This document shows positions 1 through 12,735 of a DNA stretch of 64,000 bases, piece after piece. The stretch is from NCBI RefSeq assembly GCF_009931435.1, contig NZ_CP043414.1. The stretch is one strand, 5' to 3'. The position numbers and the translations under genes are program-made. The notes beneath the pieces were generated by a model, which saw only the letters and a list, made by a program, of their open reading frames with translations, was not told the DNA's origin and did not search any database. Every line of letters starts with the position of its first letter. Positions within the stretch are counted from its first letter, which is position 1. Source of the stretch: Escherichia coli. GTDB lineage: Bacteria > Pseudomonadota > Gammaproteobacteria > Enterobacterales > Enterobacteriaceae.

Positions 1-779
1 GCTGACCTGCGGGGTCGGCAACTCCTCAGGCATGGTTCCGCCAAGTTCCTGAATGGTTTGCCTCACCTTGCTACCCACGTCAAAGTGTGTGGTATTAGCT
101 TGCTGTTTTGAATTCACGCCATCCCGCTTGAGTTTTTCTTCTGTTTGGGTAGCTCGAAAGAGATTAGCCGCCAGTTCTGTTGAACCCATATGATCCAGGA
201 TCTTCTGACTCTTTTTCAGCCCCTTCCGCTGATGGATGGCTTTCTGATCTAATCCACCATACAGTCCCCGGTAACCATGATTCTGAAATATGGCGAAATC
301 GATAGCTGTCGCTACCCCAGCTTGCTGCGCTGCCTCAACTAATTGTTTGTTATGTTCTTTCAACTCATTTCTCAGAAAAAGACGCTTTTCGTCTTCACGA
401 AGTTGCCTGAAAGCTTCATCGTCAGCCAGCTCCTGCCGTCGGGTCTGGATAGCAAAATAAGTTTGCCCTGCCGCAATAACCGGTTTCGCAGGGTCGCCGT
501 TTTGTACTACCAGGTAACAGGCATAGCGGGAGAGTACGATGTCTTTTAATGCTCTTTTGGCATTTGAGCCAATTTTGACCATATCGAGGATCTCCTCGAA
601 ATGGTCATCAATTGTGTGACCACTATTCAGACAAGCTTCTTTGGCGCGCGTTAATACAGGTATAAAGTGACGATACTCTGAATAACCCAGTAGTTTTCCA
701 AGTTGTCTTGCTGACCATTGTTCTGCTCCGTTTGCATTAATCAGCTTTATCTCTTCAAAAGGTTGATGATGTTCGTTCA
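1..779 (-). CDS. dinD: DNA damage-inducible protein DinD, 3' end truncated by window edge
   Basis: Minus-strand translation from ATG near 779 reads MNEHHQPFEEIKLINANGAEQWSARQLGKLLGYSEY... and stays open to position 1; not in ORF track because it has no stop inside the window. LexA box immediately upstream. Confidence 0.8.
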
Positions 780-825
780 TTGCCCACTCCATGTGATATC
801 GATTGCAAAGAAAGTAAATCTGCAA

Positions 826-841
826 CTGTATTTATATACAG
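826..841. promoter_or_regulatory. LexA box (SOS operator) in dinD promoter
   Basis: Sequence CTGTATTTATATACAG is a perfect CTGT-N8-ACAG palindrome about 50 bp upstream of the dinD start; dinD is a known LexA-regulated gene. Confidence 0.7.
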
Positions 842-1000
842 TTGTGAGTATCTCACGTTCTCAGTGTGCTGGGCAAAAAAACATCGCAAAATCTGGAGCA
901 GGCACGCAAAACAGAATTGAAGTTGCGGGGAAGAAAAATGCCGCTCTGTTTGAGTGGGCGGCATTTGTGAAGGCTGAAAAGTAAGAATTGGCGTTACGAG

Positions 1001-1864
1001 TTATTCAATGTTCTGAATCTGCTCGCGCATCTGCTCAATCAACACTTTCAGCTCAATCGCGGAGTTAGTCACTTCGGCATTGATAGACTTCGAGGCCAGG
1101 GTGTTCGACTCGCGGTTGAACTCCTGCATCATAAAGTCCAGACGACGACCAACGGCTTCTTTTTTCTTCAGAATGTTGTAGGTCTCTTTAACATGCGCTT
1201 CGAGGCGGTCCAACTCTTCGGCAACGTCAATTCGTTGTGCCAGCAGAACCAACTCCTGCTCCAGACGGTTGTTTTCCAGTTGCACCTGGGCGTCTTCCAG
1301 CTTAGCCACCAGACGTTCACGCTGCCATTGCAGGATTTCCGGCATGTGGGCGCGGACTTTGACCACTTCGGCGGTCACGCCTTCCAGACGCTGCTCGATC
1401 AATGCTTTCAGCGCCTGACCTTCGGTTTCGCGCGCGACGATAAAGTCATCCAGCGTACCATCCAGCGCCACGAGAATTTCAGCGGCAATCGCGTCGAGAT
1501 CCTGTTCCTGGGCCGCCATCACGCCTGGCCAGCGGAGAATATCAACCGGGTTGATTTCCCCTTCGTCACTCTGCATTTTTACCCAGTTCGCGGCAGTTAC
1601 CAGCTGTTTAGCCAGTTTTTCGTTGAGGATCAGCTCACCTTGTGCGCTGACATCTGGCTCATAGCGCAGGGTACATTCCACTTTACCACGCGTCAGGCGA
1701 GAACGAATACGCTCGCGAACGACAGGTTCAAGGCTACGGAACTGCTCCGGCAGACGAAAGTAAGTTTCCAGATAACGCTGGTTTACCGAGCGCATTTCCC
1801 AGGTTGCGCTCCCCCATTCACCCTTGATTTCACGCCGGGCGTAGGCGGTCATACTGCGGATCAT
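1001..1864 (-). CDS. yicC: YicC family stress-induced protein
   Basis: ORF track 287 aa, MIRSMTAYARREIKGEWGSATWEMRSVNQRYLE...; conserved position beside rph. Confidence 0.9.
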   Translation of the reverse strand: MIRSMTAYARREIKGEWGSATWEMRSVNQRYLETYFRLPEQFRSLEPVVRERIRSRLTRGKVECTLRYEPDVSAQGELILNEKLAKQLVTAANWVKMQSDEGEINPVDILRWPGVMAAQEQDLDAIAAEILVALDGTLDDFIVARETEGQALKALIEQRLEGVTAEVVKVRAHMPEILQWQRERLVAKLEDAQVQLENNRLEQELVLLAQRIDVAEELDRLEAHVKETYNILKKKEAVGRRLDFMMQEFNRESNTLASKSINAEVTNSAIELKVLIEQMREQIQNIE

Positions 1865-1990
1865 AGACGTTCCTGTTTATAAAAGGAGAGGTGGAAGGAT
1901 TATAGCCATCGATGCCTTGTCAGGATAGGAATAACCGCCGGAAGTCCGTATAATGCGCAGCCACATTTGTTTCAAGCCGGAGATTTCAAT

Positions 1991-2707
1991 ATGCGTCCAG
2001 CAGGCCGTAGCAATAATCAGGTGCGTCCCGTTACCCTGACTCGTAACTATACAAAACATGCAGAAGGCTCGGTGCTGGTCGAATTTGGCGATACCAAAGT
2101 ATTATGTACCGCCTCTATTGAAGAAGGCGTGCCCCGCTTCCTGAAAGGTCAGGGCCAGGGCTGGATCACCGCAGAATACGGTATGCTGCCGCGTTCTACT
2201 CATACCCGTAATGCCCGTGAAGCGGCGAAAGGTAAGCAGGGGGGACGCACAATGGAAATCCAGCGTCTGATCGCCCGTGCTCTTCGCGCGGCAGTAGATT
2301 TGAAAGCGCTGGGTGAGTTCACCATTACGCTGGACTGCGACGTGCTTCAGGCTGATGGTGGCACGCGTACCGCTTCGATTACCGGTGCTTGTGTTGCACT
2401 GGCCGATGCCCTGAATAAACTGGTTGAAAATGGCAAGCTGAAAACCAACCCGATGAAAGGGATGGTAGCCGCGGTTTCTGTCGGGATTGTGAACGGCGAA
2501 GCGGTTTGCGATCTGGAATACGTTGAAGACTCTGCCGCTGAAACGGACATGAACGTGGTGATGACCGAAGACGGGCGCATCATTGAAGTTCAGGGAACGG
2601 CAGAAGGCGAGCCGTTTACCCATGAAGAGCTACTCACCTTGTTGGCGCTGGCCCGAGGGGGAATCGAATCCATTGTAGCGACGCAGAAGGCGGCGCTGGC
2701 AAACTGA
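1991..2707 (+). CDS. rph: ribonuclease PH (intact, 238 aa)
   Basis: ORF track 1967..2707; canonical start [38 protein letters not shown] at the ATG 24 nt inside the track ORF. Reading frame is intact to the stop. Confidence 0.93.
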
Positions 2708-2712
2708 TTTTT

Positions 2713-2741
2713 AAGGCGACTGATGAGTCGCCTTTTTTTTG
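2713..2741 (+). terminator. pyrE attenuator: intrinsic terminator hairpin in rph-pyrE spacer
   Basis: AAGGCGAC-TGATGA-GTCGCCTT stem-loop followed by a T8 run, between the rph stop and pyrE start; matches the known UTP-sensitive pyrE attenuation mechanism. Confidence 0.8.
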
Positions 2742-2772
2742 TCTGTAGAAAAGTAAGATGAGGAGCGAAGGC

Positions 2773-3414
2773 ATGAAACCATATCAGCGCCAGTTTATTG
2801 AATTTGCGCTTGGCAAGCAGGTGTTAAAGTTTGGCGAGTTTACGCTGAAGTCCGGGCGCAAAAGCCCCTATTTCTTCAACGCCGGGCTGTTTAATACCGG
2901 GCGCGATCTGGCACTGTTAGGCCGTTTTTACGCTGAAGCATTGGTGGATTCCGGCATTGAGTTCGATCTGCTGTTTGGCCCTGCTTACAAAGGGATCCCA
3001 ATTGCCACTACTACCGCAGTGGCGCTGGCGGAGCATCATGACCTGGACCTGCCGTACTGCTTTAACCGCAAAGAAGCAAAAGACCACGGTGAAGGCGGCA
3101 ATCTGGTCGGTAGCGCGTTACAAGGACGCGTAATGCTGGTGGATGATGTGATCACCGCCGGAACGGCGATTCGCGAGTCGATGGAAATTATTCAGGCCAA
3201 TGGCGCGACGCTTGCTGGCGTATTGATTTCGCTCGATCGTCAGGAGCGTGGTCGCGGCGAGATTTCGGCAATTCAGGAAGTTGAACGTGATTACAACTGC
3301 AAAGTGATCTCTATCATCACCCTGAAAGACCTGATTGCTTACCTCGAAGAGAAGCCAGAAATGGCGGAACATCTGGCGGCGGTTAAGGCCTACCGCGAAG
3401 AGTTTGGCGTTTAA
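2773..3414 (+). CDS. pyrE: orotate phosphoribosyltransferase
   Basis: ORF track 2758..3414; canonical start [36 protein letters not shown] at ATG 2773. Confidence 0.95.
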
Positions 3415-3421
3415 AAATATG

Positions 3422-3450
3422 CGCTGCGCAGGTTTTTACTGTGCGCAGCG
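3422..3450 (+). terminator. stem-loop downstream of pyrE (possible terminator or retron boundary hairpin)
   Basis: CGCTGCGCA / TGCGCAGCG 9-bp inverted repeat with an 11-nt T-rich loop; no clear downstream T-run, so the terminator role is uncertain. Confidence 0.35.
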
Positions 3451-3484
3451 TGATGCGGTTTAAGATATCGTGTTAATCTGCTTT

Positions 3485-3678
3485 CGCCAGCAGTGGCAAT
3501 AGCGTTTCCGGCCTTTTATGCCGGGAGGGTCGGCGAGTCGCCGACTTAACGCCAGTAGGTTGTCCAGATACCCAAAGTCGCTCCATTGTACTTAAGTACG
3601 CTTCGCGTACGTCGCGCTGACGCGCTCAGTACAGTTACGCGCCTTCGGGATGGTTTGATGGTATTGCTGCTGTTGGCG
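3485..3678 (+). ncRNA. msr-msd: retron msr-msd non-coding region (template/primer RNA for msDNA)
   Basis: About 190-nt non-coding stretch directly upstream of the RT gene, flanked by inverted repeats a1 (about 3485-3503, CGCCAGCAGTGGCAATAGC) and a2 (about 3660-3678, GTATTGCTGCTGTTGGCG) that pair over 17 bp allowing G-U wobbles; internal palindromes (GTACTTAAGTAC, GTCGGCGAGTCGCCGAC) fit the msd stem. Boundaries are approximate. Confidence 0.6.
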
Positions 3679-3710
3679 CCTCTTTTGGCCGCCGTGATGT
3701 GGAGAGTGGA

Positions 3711-4670
3711 ATGGATGCTACCCGGATAACCCTTCTGGCGCTCGATTTGTTCGGCTCGCCGGGCTGGAGCGCCGATAAAGAAATACAGCGGCTGTATGCG
3801 CTCAGTAATCATGCCGGACGCCATTACCGACGCATTATTCTTTCTAAACGCCACGGTGGTCAGCGGCTGGTGTTAGCCCCTGATTACTTGCTCAAAACCG
3901 TACAGCGCAACATTCTTAAGAACGTCCTTTCACAATTTCCACTTTCCTCTTTTGCTACCGCCTACCGACAGGGTCGCCCAATCGTCAGCAACGCGCAGCC
4001 TCACTGCCAACAGCCGCAGATCCTTAAACTCGATATCGAAAACTTTTTCGATAGCATTAGCTGGCTACAGGTCTGGCGTGTGTTTAGCCAGACCCAGTTG
4101 CCACGCAATGTGGTAACCATGCTGACCTGGCTTTGTTGCTATAACGACGCGTTACCGCAGGGGGCGCCAACTTCGCCTGCCATTTCCAATCTTGTGATGC
4201 GCCGTTTTGATGAGTGCATAGGGGAATGGTGTCAGGCTCGGGGAATTACCTACACCCGCTACTGCGATGACATGACCTTTTCTGGTCACTTCAATGCCCG
4301 CCAGGTTAAAAATAAAGTATGCGGATTGTTAGCGGAGCTGGGCCTGAGCCTCAATCAACGCAAAAGCTGCCTGATAGCTGCCTGTAAGCGCCAGCAGGTA
4401 ACCGGGATTGTTGTTAATCACAAGCCACAGCTTGCCCGTGAAGCGCGCCGGGCGCTGCGTCAGGAAGTACATTTGTGCCAAAAATATGGCGTTATTTCGC
4501 ATCTTAGTCATCGTGGTGAACTTGATCCTTCTGGCGATCTCCACGCACAGGCAACGGCGTATCTTTATGCTTTGCAGGGAAGAATAAACTGGTTATTGCA
4601 AATCAATCCTGAGGATGAGGCCTTTAAACAGGCGAGGGTGAGTGTAAAGCGAATGCTGGTGGCATGGTAA
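3711..4670 (+). CDS. ret: retron-type reverse transcriptase (319 aa)
   Basis: ORF track 3699..4670 (start taken at first ATG, 3711). RT motifs visible: LKLDIENFFDSI, QGAPTSPAISNL, YTRYCDDMTF (YxDD box), GLSLNQRKS, and retron-typical VTG motif (RQQVTGIVVNHKP). Sits between pyrE and slmA, which are adjacent in K-12. Confidence 0.9.
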   Translation: MDATRITLLALDLFGSPGWSADKEIQRLYALSNHAGRHYRRIILSKRHGGQRLVLAPDYLLKTVQRNILKNVLSQFPLSSFATAYRQGRPIVSNAQPHCQQPQILKLDIENFFDSISWLQVWRVFSQTQLPRNVVTMLTWLCCYNDALPQGAPTSPAISNLVMRRFDECIGEWCQARGITYTRYCDDMTFSGHFNARQVKNKVCGLLAELGLSLNQRKSCLIAACKRQQVTGIVVNHKPQLAREARRALRQEVHLCQKYGVISHLSHRGELDPSGDLHAQATAYLYALQGRINWLLQINPEDEAFKQARVSVKRMLVAW

Positions 4671-4678
4671 GAAAAGCG

Positions 4679-4700
4679 TCAGGCAGACGTTTCTGCCTGA
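4679..4700. terminator. hairpin between convergent RT gene and slmA (candidate bidirectional terminator)
   Basis: TCAGGCAGA-CGTT-TCTGCCTGA perfect 9-bp stem; on the minus strand it is followed by a T-rich tract. Confidence 0.5.
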
Positions 4701-4713
4701 ACGTTTGGGAGAA

Positions 4714-5310
4714 TTACTGCAACTGCGCAGCAATTAGCGGCCAGCGGGCGTCAAAGTCATCCGTCGGGCGGTATTTAAACTCGCTGCGGACAAAGCGTGA
4801 CAGCATACCTTCACAGAAGGCCAGGATCTGGCTTGCCAGCAGGGTTTCGTCGGTGGTGTAACCTTCACCCTCACGCATTCTCTTTTCACGCAATACCTGA
4901 CGCAACTGCGCTTCAATACGCTCGAATAGCTGGTTGATGCGCCCTTGCAGGCGATCCTGTTCAAACATTAGTGCATGACCAGTGAGGATGCGGGTCAGGC
5001 CAGGATTACGCTCACCAAAACCGAGAAGCAGCAACACAATCAGACGCAGGCGCGCTGTGGTGTCTTTCTCATCTTTCAGAATCAGATTGATGCGAGTAAT
5101 CAGGCTATCTTCGATAAACTCAATCAGGCTATCGAACATGCGGGTCTTACTGGGGAAGTGGCGATACAGTGCCGCTTCGGAAACGCCGACAGAGGCGGCC
5201 AGTTTTGCCGTCGTGATACGTTGGCTTCCATCGCTGGATTCCAGCATCAGCGCCAGAGACTGAAGTATTTCCTCGCGACGGTTCCTTTTCGCAGTTTGTT
5301 TTTCTGCCAT
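4714..5310 (-). CDS. slmA: nucleoid occlusion factor SlmA (TetR family)
   Basis: ORF track 4714..5352; canonical start [52 protein letters not shown] 14 codons inside the track ORF. Confidence 0.95.
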
Positions 5311-5416
5311 GTTACAAAATACCCCTGAAAATAAGCACTTGCCAGGCGGCACCCACGCTATGACCGCAAACGAAATGTTTGCGGCTATGTTATGACGTTA
5401 TTCGGATGCGTATGTG

Positions 5417-5875
5417 TTACTGACGACCAGAGTGACCAAAGCCGCCTTCACCGCGGTCGGTGGCGTCGAAATCTTCCACCAGATTAAATTCAGCCTGTAC
5501 TACCGGAACAAAAATCATCTGGGCGATGCGTTCGCCAGGTTGAATGGTGAAGCTGTCCTGACCACGGTTCCACACGGAAATCATCAACTGGCCCTGATAG
5601 TCAGAATCGATCAATCCTACCAGGTTACCAAGCACGATACCGTGCTTATGTCCCAATCCGGAGCGCGGCAGCATCATTGCCGCCAGTGAAGGATCGGCAA
5701 TATGAATCGCCAGCCCGGTCGGAACCAGCGTAGTGTCACCCGGAGCCAGTTCTACGGCGTCGTCGAGACAGGCACGCAGGTCAAGTCCGGCAGAGCCAGA
5801 GGTGGCATAAGTCGGGAGCGGAAATTCCTTCCCAACGCGCGGGTCCAGAATCTTAACGTCGATTTTTTTCATCAT
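5417..5875 (-). CDS. dut: dUTP diphosphatase
   Basis: ORF track 152 aa [37 protein letters not shown]...; the true start may be the second Met (5872). Confidence 0.95.
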
Positions 5876-7073
5876 AACGGGTCACGATCTCGTCGAGTAA
5901 TAATTGGCCAAGGAGCTCTTTGCGCTCAAGCGGTAAGACTTTATCTCCGTCCTGCCAGAAAAGGTGTAATGCGTTGTTGTCGCTGTTAAATCCTTGAGTT
6001 GGCTGGGAAACATCGTTCGCGCAGATCAGATCAAGGTTTTTACGGATACGTTTTTGCCGGGCGTATTCTTCCACATTATTTGTTTCGGCGGCAAATCCAA
6101 CGACGTAGGGTCGATGGTCTTTTAGTGCGGCAACACCAGCGACGATATCGGGGTTTTTAACCATTTTTATTGTTAATTCATCACCCTGCGTGGCCTGCTT
6201 TTTGATTTTCTCTGGGGCTACGGTAGCTGCGCGATAATCCGCCACGGCGGCGCAACCGATAAAAATATTTTGCTGCTGTACAGAAGCATTCACGGCCGCT
6301 TCCATTTCCAGCGCAGTCATCACATCAACACGTTTAACAAACGGTGGCGTCGGTAGTGAAACCGGACCTGATACCAGCGTGACGTTCGCGCCACGACGGG
6401 CAGCGGCGGCGGCGATAGCAAAACCCATCTTGCCTGAGCTGTGATTAGAGATATAACGCACCGGATCGAGCGGTTCACGCGTCGGGCCGGCGGTAATCAT
6501 AATGTTCAGATGTTTCAGGTCGTTGACGGGCGAAAAATGTGCTACCGCCATATCAACAATGGTTAACGGATCGAGCATTCGCCCAGGGCCGATATCACCA
6601 CAAGCCTGACTGCCGCTATCTGGCCCCCAGATGAGCAAACCACGCGAGGCAAGCAGCTCTAAATTATGCTGCGTGGCAGCTGCACGGTACATCTGCTGGT
6701 TCATGGCGGGCAGCACGGCTACAGGCGCAGGTGTAGCCAGGCAAATCGTCGATACCAGGTCATTCGCCATTCCGGCAGCAACACGGGCAATCAAATCTGC
6801 CGTGGCAGGGGCGAGAATCACTAAATCAGCCCATTTACCCAGCTCAATATGGCCCATAGCGGCTTCGGCTGCCGGGTCAAGCAGACTGTCGGAAACGGGA
6901 TACCCCGAAACTGCCTGCAAGCTAAGTGGGGTAATAAAGGCTTTTGCCGCTTCGGTCATGGCTACGCGGACGTCGGCCCCGCGATCGCGCAAACGACGCG
7001 CCAGTTCAGGGGTTTTATAGGCAGCAATACCGCCGCTGACGCCGAGAACGATTTTTTTACCGGCCAGGCTCAT
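5853..7073 (-). CDS. coaBC: bifunctional phosphopantothenoylcysteine decarboxylase / phosphopantothenate-cysteine ligase
   Basis: ORF track 5853..7145; canonical 406-aa start [37 protein letters not shown] 24 codons inside the track ORF. Confidence 0.95.
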
Positions 7074-7244
7074 GATGATTTTTCCTGTTGGGTGACACCA
7101 GAAGTTGGCGATTTTATCACAATACTTTTGTTGTCGTGCCTTCACCTGAAAATCACTTTGCGAGGCGCTTTCCAGGATTGAAAACTGACCGTCGATTTAA
7201 CGGAACGGCTATGACAGGATGCGAGCACCACAAAGGAGGTGAAG

Positions 7245-7913
7245 GTGAAAAACAATGCACAGCTGTTGATGCCGCGCGAAAAAATGCTGAAGTTTGGCAT
7301 TGGTGCGTTAACGGATGTTGAGCTGCTGGCGCTATTTCTGCGTACCGGAACGCGCGGTAAAGATGTATTAACCCTGGCAAAAGAGATGCTGGAGAATTTC
7401 GGCTCTCTTTATGGCTTGTTAACCTCTGAATATGAACAATTTAGCGGTGTTCATGGAATTGGTGTGGCGAAGTTCGCTCAGTTAAAGGGGATTGCTGAAC
7501 TGGCGCGGCGTTACTACAACGTGCGGATGCGTGAAGAAAGCCCTTTACTCAGCCCGGAGATGACGAGGGAATTTTTACAAAGCCAGCTCACGGGCGAGGA
7601 GCGGGAGATCTTTATGGTGATCTTTCTCGACTCCCAACACAGGGTTATAACGCATAGCCGTCTTTTTTCCGGCACGCTAAACCATGTTGAAGTCCATCCT
7701 CGGGAAATTATCCGCGAAGCGATAAAAATAAACGCCTCGGCGCTGATCCTTGCACATAATCACCCTTCGGGTTGTGCTGAACCCAGTAAAGCGGATAAAC
7801 TCATTACCGAACGGATAATAAAAAGTTGTCAGTTCATGGATTTACGCGTGCTCGACCATATCGTGATTGGGCGTGGAGAGTATGTTTCTTTTGCCGAACG
7901 CGGCTGGATTTAA
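7245..7913 (+). CDS. radC: RadC-like JAB domain protein (YicR/RadC)
   Basis: ORF track 7239..7913; ...[40 protein letters not shown]... with HNHPSG motif; start assigned to GTG at 7245, 5 nt after an AGGAGG Shine-Dalgarno. Confidence 0.85.
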
Positions 7914-8108
7914 CCCGCTATGCGCGATCCTTCGGGATCTTTGTCTGTTCGGGACTTGAGCACATCGCTGAGTCAGCGTATACTACGCCACCTTTGAGAA
8001 TCTCGGGTTTGGCATTTGGGCCTGGCAATCGAGAGTTCACATAGAACTGCGATGACCGGGCTGTAAAGCCTGACGAGGCGCCAATACCCCATACGAAGCT
8101 CGAGCTAA

Positions 8109-8366
<258 letters not shown>

Positions 8367-8383
8367 GTACTTAGAGGAAATAA

Positions 8384-8554
<171 letters not shown>

Positions 8555-8651
8555 TTCTCGCTTTGATGTAACGAAAAACCTCGCTCCGGCGGGGTTTTTT
8601 GTTATCTGCTTGCCCCCATATTGACTGCATCTGTTGATTCCTGGAGATGCT

Positions 8652-9461
8652 ATGCCTGAATTACCCGAAGTTGAAACCAGCCGTCGCGGCATAGAACCGC
8701 ATCTCGTTGGTGCAACCATTCTTCATGCGGTGGTGCGCAACGGACGCCTGCGCTGGCCGGTTTCAGAAGAGATTTATCGATTAAGTGATCAACCAGTGCT
8801 TAGCGTGCAGCGGCGGGCTAAATATCTGCTGCTGGAGCTGCCGGAGGGCTGGATTATCATTCATTTGGGGATGTCTGGCAGCCTGCGCATCCTTTCAGAA
8901 GAACTTCCTCCCGAAAAGCATGACCATGTTGATTTGGTGATGAGCAACGGCAAAGTACTGCGCTATACCGATCCTCGCCGCTTTGGTGCCTGGCTGTGGA
9001 CCAAAGAGCTGGAAGGGCATAATGTGCTGGCCCACCTTGGACCGGAGCCGCTTAGCGACGATTTCAACGGTGAGTACCTGCATCAGAAGTGCGCGAAGAA
9101 AAAAACGGCGATTAAACCGTGGCTGATGGATAACAAGCTGGTGGTAGGGGTAGGGAATATCTATGCCAGCGAATCTCTGTTTGCGGCGGGGATCCATCCG
9201 GATCGGCTGGCGTCATCACTGTCACTGGCAGAGTGTGAATTGTTAGCTCGGGTGATTAAAGCGGTGTTGCTGCGTTCGATTGAGCAGGGCGGTACAACGC
9301 TGAAAGATTTTCTGCAAAGTGATGGTAAACCGGGCTATTTCGCTCAGGAATTGCAGGTTTACGGGCGAAAAGGCGAGCCGTGTCGAGTGTGCGGTACGCC
9401 GATTGTGGCGACGAAACATGCGCAGCGGGCAACGTTTTATTGTCGGCAGTGCCAGAAGTAA
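8652..9461 (+). CDS. mutM: formamidopyrimidine-DNA glycosylase
   Basis: ORF track 8634..9461; canonical start [20 protein letters not shown] (N-terminal Pro catalytic residue after Met) at ATG 8652; C-terminal zinc finger [25 protein letters not shown]. Confidence 0.95.
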
Positions 9462-9499
9462 TTGATGCGCGCCGGATGGCATACCATCCGGCATAAACG

Positions 9500-11264
<1,765 letters not shown>

Positions 11265-11615
11265 AGTAAATAGCTGACTTATGGATGTGCTGGGGATTCT
11301 ATGTATTTAGCTGTGGCTTTACCATTACTTTTCCCGTTTTTGACTTAAATAGCAATTTACCCGCCAATTCTTGCTGAACATCTATACTTTTTTTGTATTT
11401 TTATGCGATTCATTGATTTCCGCAGTACGTGCAGTAAGGAATCGCGGAGCAACAGTGAAAGAATATTGTTGCTAATGATTTTATTTGATTGATTTCTTTA
11501 TTGAAAAACAACGATGTGCTTAAAAATCATTCGGATCGGATTGCCGCGAAAGAAGTGATACACTAGCGCGTCAATATCAGTACGGTATCAGTATTCAGGT
11601 AGCTGTTGAGCCTGG

Positions 11616-11627
11616 GGCGGTAGCGTG
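11616..11627 (+). promoter_or_regulatory. ops element (RfaH-dependent antitermination site) within the JUMPStart leader of the waaQ operon
   Basis: Exact GGCGGTAGCGTG motif about 50 nt upstream of the waaQ start, in the divergent waaA-waaQ intergenic region. Confidence 0.75.
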
Positions 11628-11676
11628 CTTTTTCTGCTTCACCTTAATCGGATAATCTCAACAAAAAGAGTTACTT

Positions 11677-12735
11677 GTGGATAAGCCATTTCGAAGAATT
11701 TTGCTCATTAAGATGCGTTTTCATGGGGATATGTTATTAACTACTCCCGTCATTAGTTCGCTGAAAAAAAATTACCCTGACGCAAAAATCGATGTGCTGC
11801 TTTATCAGGATACCATCCCGATTCTGTCTGAAAATCCAGAGATTAACGCGCTCTACGGCATAAAAAATAAAAAAGCAAAAGCCTCAGAAAAAATTTCCAA
11901 CTTTTTTCATCTCATCAAGGTATTACGTGCCAATAAGTATGACCTTATCGTCAATCTTACCGATCAATGGATGGTTGCTATACTGGTTCGCTTATTAAAT
12001 GCCCGTGTGAAAATTTCCCAGGATTATCATCATCGGCAGTCTGCTTTTTGGCGTAAAAGCTTCACCCATCTGGTGCCGTTGCAGGGTGGAAATGTGGTGG
12101 AAAGTAACTTATCCGTGCTGACGCCACTGGGTCTCGAATCGTTGGTGAAGCAGACAACCATGAGTTACCCGCCTGCAAGCTGGAAACGAATGCGTCGCGA
12201 ACTTGATCACGCAGGTGTTGGACAAAATTATGTGGTTATCCAACCTACCGCGCGGCAAATCTTTAAATGCTGGGACAACGCCAAGTTTTCCGCTGTGATT
12301 GATGCCTTACATACACGTGGCTATGAAGTCGTTCTGACGTCCGGCCCGGATAAAGACGATCTGGCCTGCGTCAATGAAATTGCGCAGGGATGCCAGACGC
12401 CACCAGTAACGGCGTTGGCCGGAAAGGTAACCTTCCCGGAACTTGGTGCGTTAATCGATCATGCGCAGCTGTTTATTGGCGTTGATTCCGCACCGGCGCA
12501 CATTGCCGCTGCAGTTAATACGCCGCTGATATCGCTGTTTGGTGCGACAGACCATATTTTCTGGCGTCCCTGGTCAAATAACATGATTCAATTCTGGGCT
12601 GGAGATTACCGGGAAATGCCAACACGCGATCAGCGTGACCGAAATGAGATGTATCTTTCGGTTATTCCGGCGGCAGATGTCATTGCAGCTGTCGATAAAT
12701 TACTTCCCTCCTCCACGACAGGTACGTCGTTATGA
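11677..12735 (+). CDS. waaQ: LPS heptosyltransferase III
   Basis: ORF track 352 aa (GTG start) MDKPFRRILLIKMRFHGDMLLTTPVISSLKKNYPDAKIDVLLYQD...; first gene of the long waa operon. Confidence 0.88.
   Translation: MDKPFRRILLIKMRFHGDMLLTTPVISSLKKNYPDAKIDVLLYQDTIPILSENPEINALYGIKNKKAKASEKISNFFHLIKVLRANKYDLIVNLTDQWMVAILVRLLNARVKISQDYHHRQSAFWRKSFTHLVPLQGGNVVESNLSVLTPLGLESLVKQTTMSYPPASWKRMRRELDHAGVGQNYVVIQPTARQIFKCWDNAKFSAVIDALHTRGYEVVLTSGPDKDDLACVNEIAQGCQTPPVTALAGKVTFPELGALIDHAQLFIGVDSAPAHIAAAVNTPLISLFGATDHIFWRPWSNNMIQFWAGDYREMPTRDQRDRNEMYLSVIPAADVIAAVDKLLPSSTTGTSL

Follow-up and report, generated by a model that had tools for sequence, protein, structure and literature searches.

An intact rph gene and the pyrE attenuator in a non-K-12 Escherichia coli genome: a probable wild-type rph-pyrE operon

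In the E. coli pyrBI leader attenuator, a UTP-sensitive gap separating RNA polymerase from the leading ribosome decides whether an intrinsic terminator forms ahead of a gene for pyrimidine biosynthesis. Poulsen (1984) and Bonekamp (1984) reportedly described an E. coli rph-pyrE operon with an intercistronic pyrE attenuator. The logic of the two systems would be the same; they differ in the translated "leader", which is a short dedicated peptide in pyrBI and the 3' end of the full-length, functional rph gene here. The pyrE attenuation and the rph-1 defect are described in PMC11148124 and PMC2784333 (citing Jensen 1993 and Bonekamp 1984), where the low pyrE expression of rph-1 strains is ascribed to lost coupling, the ribosome stopping too early. 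The rph-1 allele has been assigned to MG1655 and the sibling strain W3110, while JM83, JM109 and XL1-Blue are rph+ (PMC11148124); another paper lists rph+ strain genotypes and nothing more (PMC13192712).

We analyzed a 64,000-nucleotide stretch of an E. coli genome (contig NZ_CP043414.1 of assembly GCF_009931435.1), hereafter the window. Its first 12,000 nucleotides have the gene order dinD-yicC-rph-pyrE-RT-slmA-dut-coaBC-radC-rpmBG-mutM-coaD-waaA, where RT is a retron-type reverse transcriptase, and the features discussed below are collected in Table 1. We consider it highly probable that nucleotides 1991–3414 constitute a wild-type E. coli rph-pyrE bicistronic operon, with an intercistronic attenuator that would be set by coupling between rph translation and the polymerase. 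The genes rph and pyrE are adjacent on one strand and separated by a short spacer; a terminator lies within this spacer, and the rph stop codon is within a ribosome footprint of the terminator's 5' arm. The K-12 rph-pyrE operon is alike in gene order, the 238-amino acid Rph, the TGA 5 nt before the hairpin, the 65-nt spacer and the pyrE start, and differs by allelic substitutions only (38 in rph, 21 in pyrE).

Table 1. Coordinates of features at the rph-pyrE locus and the adjacent retron (positions in the window)
Feature	Position	Strand	Basis or remark
TATAAT hexamer, candidate -10 of an rph-pyrE promoter	1949–1954	+	37 nt upstream of rph ATG
rph, RNase PH, 238 aa, intact	1991–2707	+	Translation, TIGR01966 profile, RefSeq annotation of syntenic locus at same coordinates
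10-bp direct repeat GCAGAAGGCG, two copies 83 nt apart	2600–2609 and 2683–2692	+	Repeat read from sequence
G5 homopolymer, site of one-G loss in rph-1 (MG1655/W3110)	2657–2661	+	Alignment with MG1655
TAG triplet, out of frame in window; premature rph stop in rph-1 strains	2676–2678	+	MG1655 CDS comparison
rph stop codon TGA	2705–2707	+	5 nt upstream of attenuator stem
pyrE attenuator, intrinsic terminator (9-bp stem 2713–2721/2726–2734, loop GATG, T8 2733–2740)	2713–2740	+	Fold, alignment, survey
GAGGAG, Shine-Dalgarno-like, 7 nt upstream of pyrE ATG	2760–2765	+	Sequence read; putative function
pyrE, orotate phosphoribosyltransferase, 213 aa	2773–3414	+	TIGR00336 at 238.9 bits; syntenic annotation at same coordinates
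Retron-Eco5 (Ec107) segment, 1,299 nt between pyrE and slmA	3415–4713		Replaces 36-nt palindromic MG1655 spacer
Retron-type RT, 319 aa	3711–4670	+	YCDD box in RYCDDMTF; 96% identity to Q05804_ECOLX

Translation of the 717-nt rph frame from its ATG (1991–1993) yields 238 codons followed by the TGA, with no internal stops. The product scores 380.9 bits on the NCBIfam equivalog for RNase PH (TIGR01966; cutoff 141.5), residues 2–236 aligning with profile positions 1–235 of 236. It has exactly the sequence of RNPH_ECO27 (WP_001247087.1), the enzyme of E. coli O127:H6 strain E2348/69. A TTG at 1967, which opens the corresponding entry in the list of open reading frames, was rejected as the start, being outweighed by the ATG used at RefSeq syntenic loci and by the alignment of TIGR01966 from residue 2. 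Upstream of the gene, the TATAAT hexamer is unchanged in MG1655 and E2348/69, and a consensus promoter scan found no full -35/-10 pair at this site, which we regard as a candidate promoter element only. A second homopolymer within rph, G6 at 2239–2244, where MG1655 has GGGTGG, is a potential slippage site; the copy in the window is intact. The downstream gene, pyrE, shows 21 nucleotide differences and one amino acid change with respect to MG1655.

Alignment of 1991–2772 with MG1655 rph and with E2348/69 revealed a single indel: GGGGG at 2657–2661 in the window and in E2348/69, GGGG in MG1655. The MG1655 gene is 687 nt long, is annotated as "truncated RNase PH" and specifies a 228-amino acid product ending ...ARGESNPL. 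Its TAG stop, equivalent to window positions 2676–2678, is 34 nt from the hairpin versus 5 nt in the window. The window thus shares the locus, spacer and hairpin with rph-1 of MG1655, W3110 and BW25113 and differs from that allele in having G5 rather than G4 and a product of 238 rather than 228 amino acids. The original prediction had claimed a complete 238-amino acid RNase PH frame ending 5 nt before the attenuator hairpin and, from this, a wild-type rph-pyrE attenuation arrangement; a frameshift close to the rph 3' end was named as the observation that would contradict it. No such frameshift is present. Both the frame (translation and a full-length TIGR01966 match) and the 5-nt distance are borne out, the latter by the TTTTT at 2708–2712 which separates the stop from the stem, and the wild-type arrangement is well supported by the intact rph and by a spacer that agrees with MG1655, E2348/69 and the species consensus. 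What had been said of the rph-1 frameshift likewise holds for MG1655, with its missing G, shortened product and early stop.

The direct repeat GCAGAAGGCG, of which the 3' part of rph has two copies, is implicated in a recurrent 82-bp rph-pyrE deletion in laboratory-evolved MG1655, which is flanked by a 10-bp repeat recurring after 82 bp (PMC2784333). The spacing of the copies is 83 in the window, not 82, because the window retains the extra G.

The stem of the attenuator is perfect over its 9 bp, AAGGCGACT (2713–2721) pairing with AGTCGCCTT (2726–2734), and on its own the hairpin has a folding energy of -14.3 kcal/mol. The hairpin had originally been placed at 2713–2741; the start was right, and 2741 is the G just past the T run, a trivial difference. 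The spacer comprises 65 nt and ends at 2772, immediately ahead of the pyrE ATG. It is identical in the window, MG1655 and E2348/69, as are the hairpin, T run and pyrE start (65/65 versus MG1655), so that the window carries the characterized K-12 spacer. General-purpose searches gave little at this site. The fold of the 86-nt attenuator region was unremarkable (z-score -1.24), and a generic terminator scan was not enriched in the region (3 sites versus 2.4 expected). Since neither result is significant, the case for the hairpin rests on conservation and fixed position. An Rfam scan of 1–8000 returned, on the hairpin, only a chance-level match to RyhB (E = 0.43, 24.5 bits versus 55), and Rfam has no curated family for the pyrE attenuator or for the retron RNA. 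The last 73 nt upstream of the hairpin contain 22% T and are not visibly U-rich; the pause sites of the coupling model are invisible in composition alone.

Within E. coli, rph differs from a restored K-12 reference by 38 substitutions, of which 35 affect the third base of a codon, and by three amino acid changes (A138V, N142Q and T216I). None of the substitutions falls in 2648–2811, a 164-nt block without a difference from K-12 which covers the last 20 rph codons, the attenuator and the first 13 pyrE codons. Similarly, the 129 nt at 2662–2790 are present at ≥99% identity in 5,339 of 5,424 complete E. coli genomes, 24 of 30 matches sampled at even spacing being exact. Judged by these comparisons, the spacer and attenuator of the window are the species consensus, and constraint at 2648–2811 reaches beyond the hairpin itself.

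The junction was also surveyed across the Enterobacterales, with one genome per species searched by a degenerate pyrE N-terminal pattern; in each junction the rph stop was located, together with the best combination of hairpin and T run. This gave 115 rph-pyrE junctions, including that of the window, from genera among which are Escherichia, Salmonella, Citrobacter, Klebsiella, Raoultella, Enterobacter, Kluyvera, Buttiauxella, Cedecea, Budvicia, Pragia and Limnobaculum. The rph stop lies 2–9 nt before the terminator hairpin in 114 of the 115 junctions, and 4–5 nt before it in 96; on the other side, anywhere between 31 and 171 nt separate the hairpin from the pyrE ATG. An equivalent hairpin and T run was located in each of 113 other junctions. 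The stems vary between genera with pairing kept (GGCGACT/AGTCGCC, GGGCGAC/GTCGCCC, AGCGACG/CGTCGCT and GGCGGCT/AGCCGCC), and in 22 of 96 unique sequences an inner stem pair is changed on both sides, for example from T-A to G-C or C-G. RNAalifold on a MAFFT alignment of the 96 unique junctions gave a weak consensus (-2.04 kcal/mol, 6 pairs), since loops of 3–6 nt misalign, and per-sequence hairpin detection was relied upon instead. A further junction, that of Budvicia diplopodorum (NZ_WOYF01000014.1), was the sole one surveyed without a detectable terminator hairpin after rph; there the spacer of 164 nt begins with a degenerate GGCGACGGAAGCGCCGC... and a T run is absent.

Beyond the observed anatomy, intact frame, spacer identity and conserved stop-to-hairpin spacing, we draw on the literature or on inference for the dependence on UTP, the pausing of the polymerase and the occlusion by the ribosome. 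The efficiency of the terminator would depend on how near the ribosome translating rph trails RNA polymerase. At low UTP the polymerase would be slow, allowing the ribosome to catch up and reach the TGA at 2705–2707; there its mRNA channel would cover the start of the 5' arm, from 2713 onward, so that no hairpin forms and transcription reads through into pyrE. At high UTP the polymerase would run ahead, the hairpin would form and most transcripts would end at about 2740. In rph-1 the ribosome would stop 29 nt earlier and could not reach the hairpin, leaving pyrE low. A ribosome usually holds 12–15 nt of mRNA downstream of its decoding site. One stalled on the TGA would, we infer, mask about 5–7 nt of the 5' arm. 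Trimming the arm in silico by 5 nt weakened the hairpin from -14.3 to -4.3 kcal/mol, and after removal of 7 nt it was gone; since trimming destabilizes the hairpin, folding supports occlusion. Taken as a whole, the sequence tests support the coupling model, whose UTP dependence is known for K-12 from the literature.

Several other readings of the junction deserve attention. The hairpin might be a plain rph terminator, with pyrE on its own promoter and the closeness of stop and hairpin without regulatory meaning. Its structure is generic and such sites are no commoner than in shuffled sequence, as this reading would have it; it is nevertheless very unlikely, since just 32 nt separate the T run from the pyrE ATG and a crude consensus scan of 2741–2772 found no sigma-70-like site, and since a plain terminator would hardly account for a stop-to-hairpin distance held so narrowly across the survey alongside a variable downstream spacer. 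The published attribution of low pyrE in rph-1 strains to lost coupling at the attenuator (PMC11148124, PMC2784333) argues in the same direction. That the G5 is a homopolymer miscall and the true gene frameshifted is more improbable still. Homopolymers are the commonest assembly error, and isolated assemblies with G4 exist (2015C-3101 and Kluyvera YDC799); against this, about 5,250 of 5,420 complete E. coli genomes (~97%) carry G5, and G5 yields a protein identical to the RefSeq/UniProt entry. These counts derive from the 59-nt segment running from the G run to the rph stop, which occurs in its exact G4 form in 168 of the 5,420 genomes; the other 5,252 differ from it, and in a sample of these the extra G was nearly always the sole difference. 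Among the first 60 of the 168 G4 carriers almost all are derivatives of MG1655, W3110, BW25113, J53 or HMS174, the one non-K-12 genome being that of the clinical stool isolate E. coli 2015C-3101 (NZ_CP027221.1; 5.3 Mb). Its rph, annotated as "frameshifted" (844–1559 of locus L124), has the tail ...ARGESNPL*, and 24 positions differ from MG1655 across rph-pyrE. Kluyvera genomosp. 3 YDC799 (CP022114.1) likewise has G4, the tail ...ARGESNPL and an rph stop 34 nt before the hairpin. In both, G4 may be either real recurrent slippage or a homopolymer assembly error. The same deletion in three unrelated lineages (that of K-12 W1485, 2015C-3101 and YDC799) raises the idea that G5 undergoes recurrent -1 slippage by which natural populations switch pyrE attenuation and RNase PH; separately, the invariance of 2648–2811 might reflect a further function of the attenuated 3' end of rph, such as a 3'-derived small RNA. 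We hold these ideas to be very improbable, and they touch nothing unusual in the window, which by these comparisons carries the common G5 state.

Between pyrE and slmA the window carries an insertion that replaces the short spacer of MG1655. A YCDD motif and a 34-bp replacement have been described for retron Ec107 (PMC6868368), as has its adjacency to the gene for orotate phosphoribosyltransferase (PMC7736814); our literature search found no paper joining Ec107, retron and pyrE. The insertion matches the published description of Ec107 and, by its reverse transcriptase and position, is assigned to Retron-Eco5. The best NCBIfam match of the enzyme is to the retron St85 family, at 228.6 bits, below the cutoff of 235. 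No match for a retron RNA was found in the Rfam scan of 1–8000 (msr/msd being expected upstream of the reverse transcriptase, at about 3415–3700), and the only repeats detected around the retron were short pairs at chance level. In E. coli 2020CK-00188 the reverse transcriptase gene is interrupted by an internal stop and is a pseudogene, unlike the intact copy in the window.

The original prediction went on to state that K-12 laboratory strains carry rph-1 and that an intact rph confirms a non-K-12 background. The first statement is true of the MG1655/W3110 sublineage and fails as a generality, many K-12 strains being rph+: a 1.5-kb K-12 rph-pyrE query with the G restored matched C600, DH5alpha, NEB 5-alpha, DH1, DH10B, MC4100, BW2952, NCM3722, RR1, AG100, RV308, ER2796 and others at 100%. 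As a result, intact rph cannot confirm a non-K-12 background; given also the G4 of the non-K-12 isolate 2015C-3101, as evidence against K-12 an intact rph is neither necessary nor sufficient. The conclusion itself stands on other grounds. Were the window an rph+ K-12 derivative, for example of the DH1 or MC4100 lineage, its intact gene would be uninformative on background, and the number of K-12 strains with intact rph, both in our search and in PMC11148124, makes this a reading to consider. Such strains, however, show 100% identity with restored MG1655 across 1.5 kb, while the window has 38 substitutions in the 782 nt of 1991–2772, is only 96.0% identical to MG1655 over yicC-rph-pyrE (98.7% to E2348/69), and has retron Ec107 at pyrE-slmA, which MG1655 lacks. 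Neither the near-identity nor the short palindromic pyrE-slmA spacer of the K-12 lineage is found, and the sequence comparisons already refute a K-12 derivation, to which we attach next to no probability. A cryptic Escherichia clade was rejected as well, yicC-pyrE identity being 98.7% to E2348/69 versus 93–95% to E. albertii and unnamed Escherichia species. Among 5,426 complete E. coli genomes the best identity to window positions 1–12000 was 98.7% (2020CK-00188) and the next 97.3%; rph alone is 99.4% identical to E2348/69 and differs at 25 sites from 2020CK-00188. This suggests mosaic ancestry in a sparsely sampled lineage.

The rph-pyrE attenuation arrangement of the window is thus an already known one, in the ordinary intact form found in about 97% of complete E. 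coli genomes, including many K-12 strains. The window carries a functional RNase PH and, presumably, normal pyrimidine-responsive control of pyrE, which is of little import beyond annotation. For method, the status of rph is no K-12 marker either way, with many K-12 cloning strains being rph+ and at least one non-K-12 assembly frameshifted; strain background is better read from sequence divergence and from insertions such as retron Ec107. For the Enterobacterales, the fixed distance from the rph stop to the hairpin, combined with a variable remaining spacer, provides small comparative support for the coupling model.
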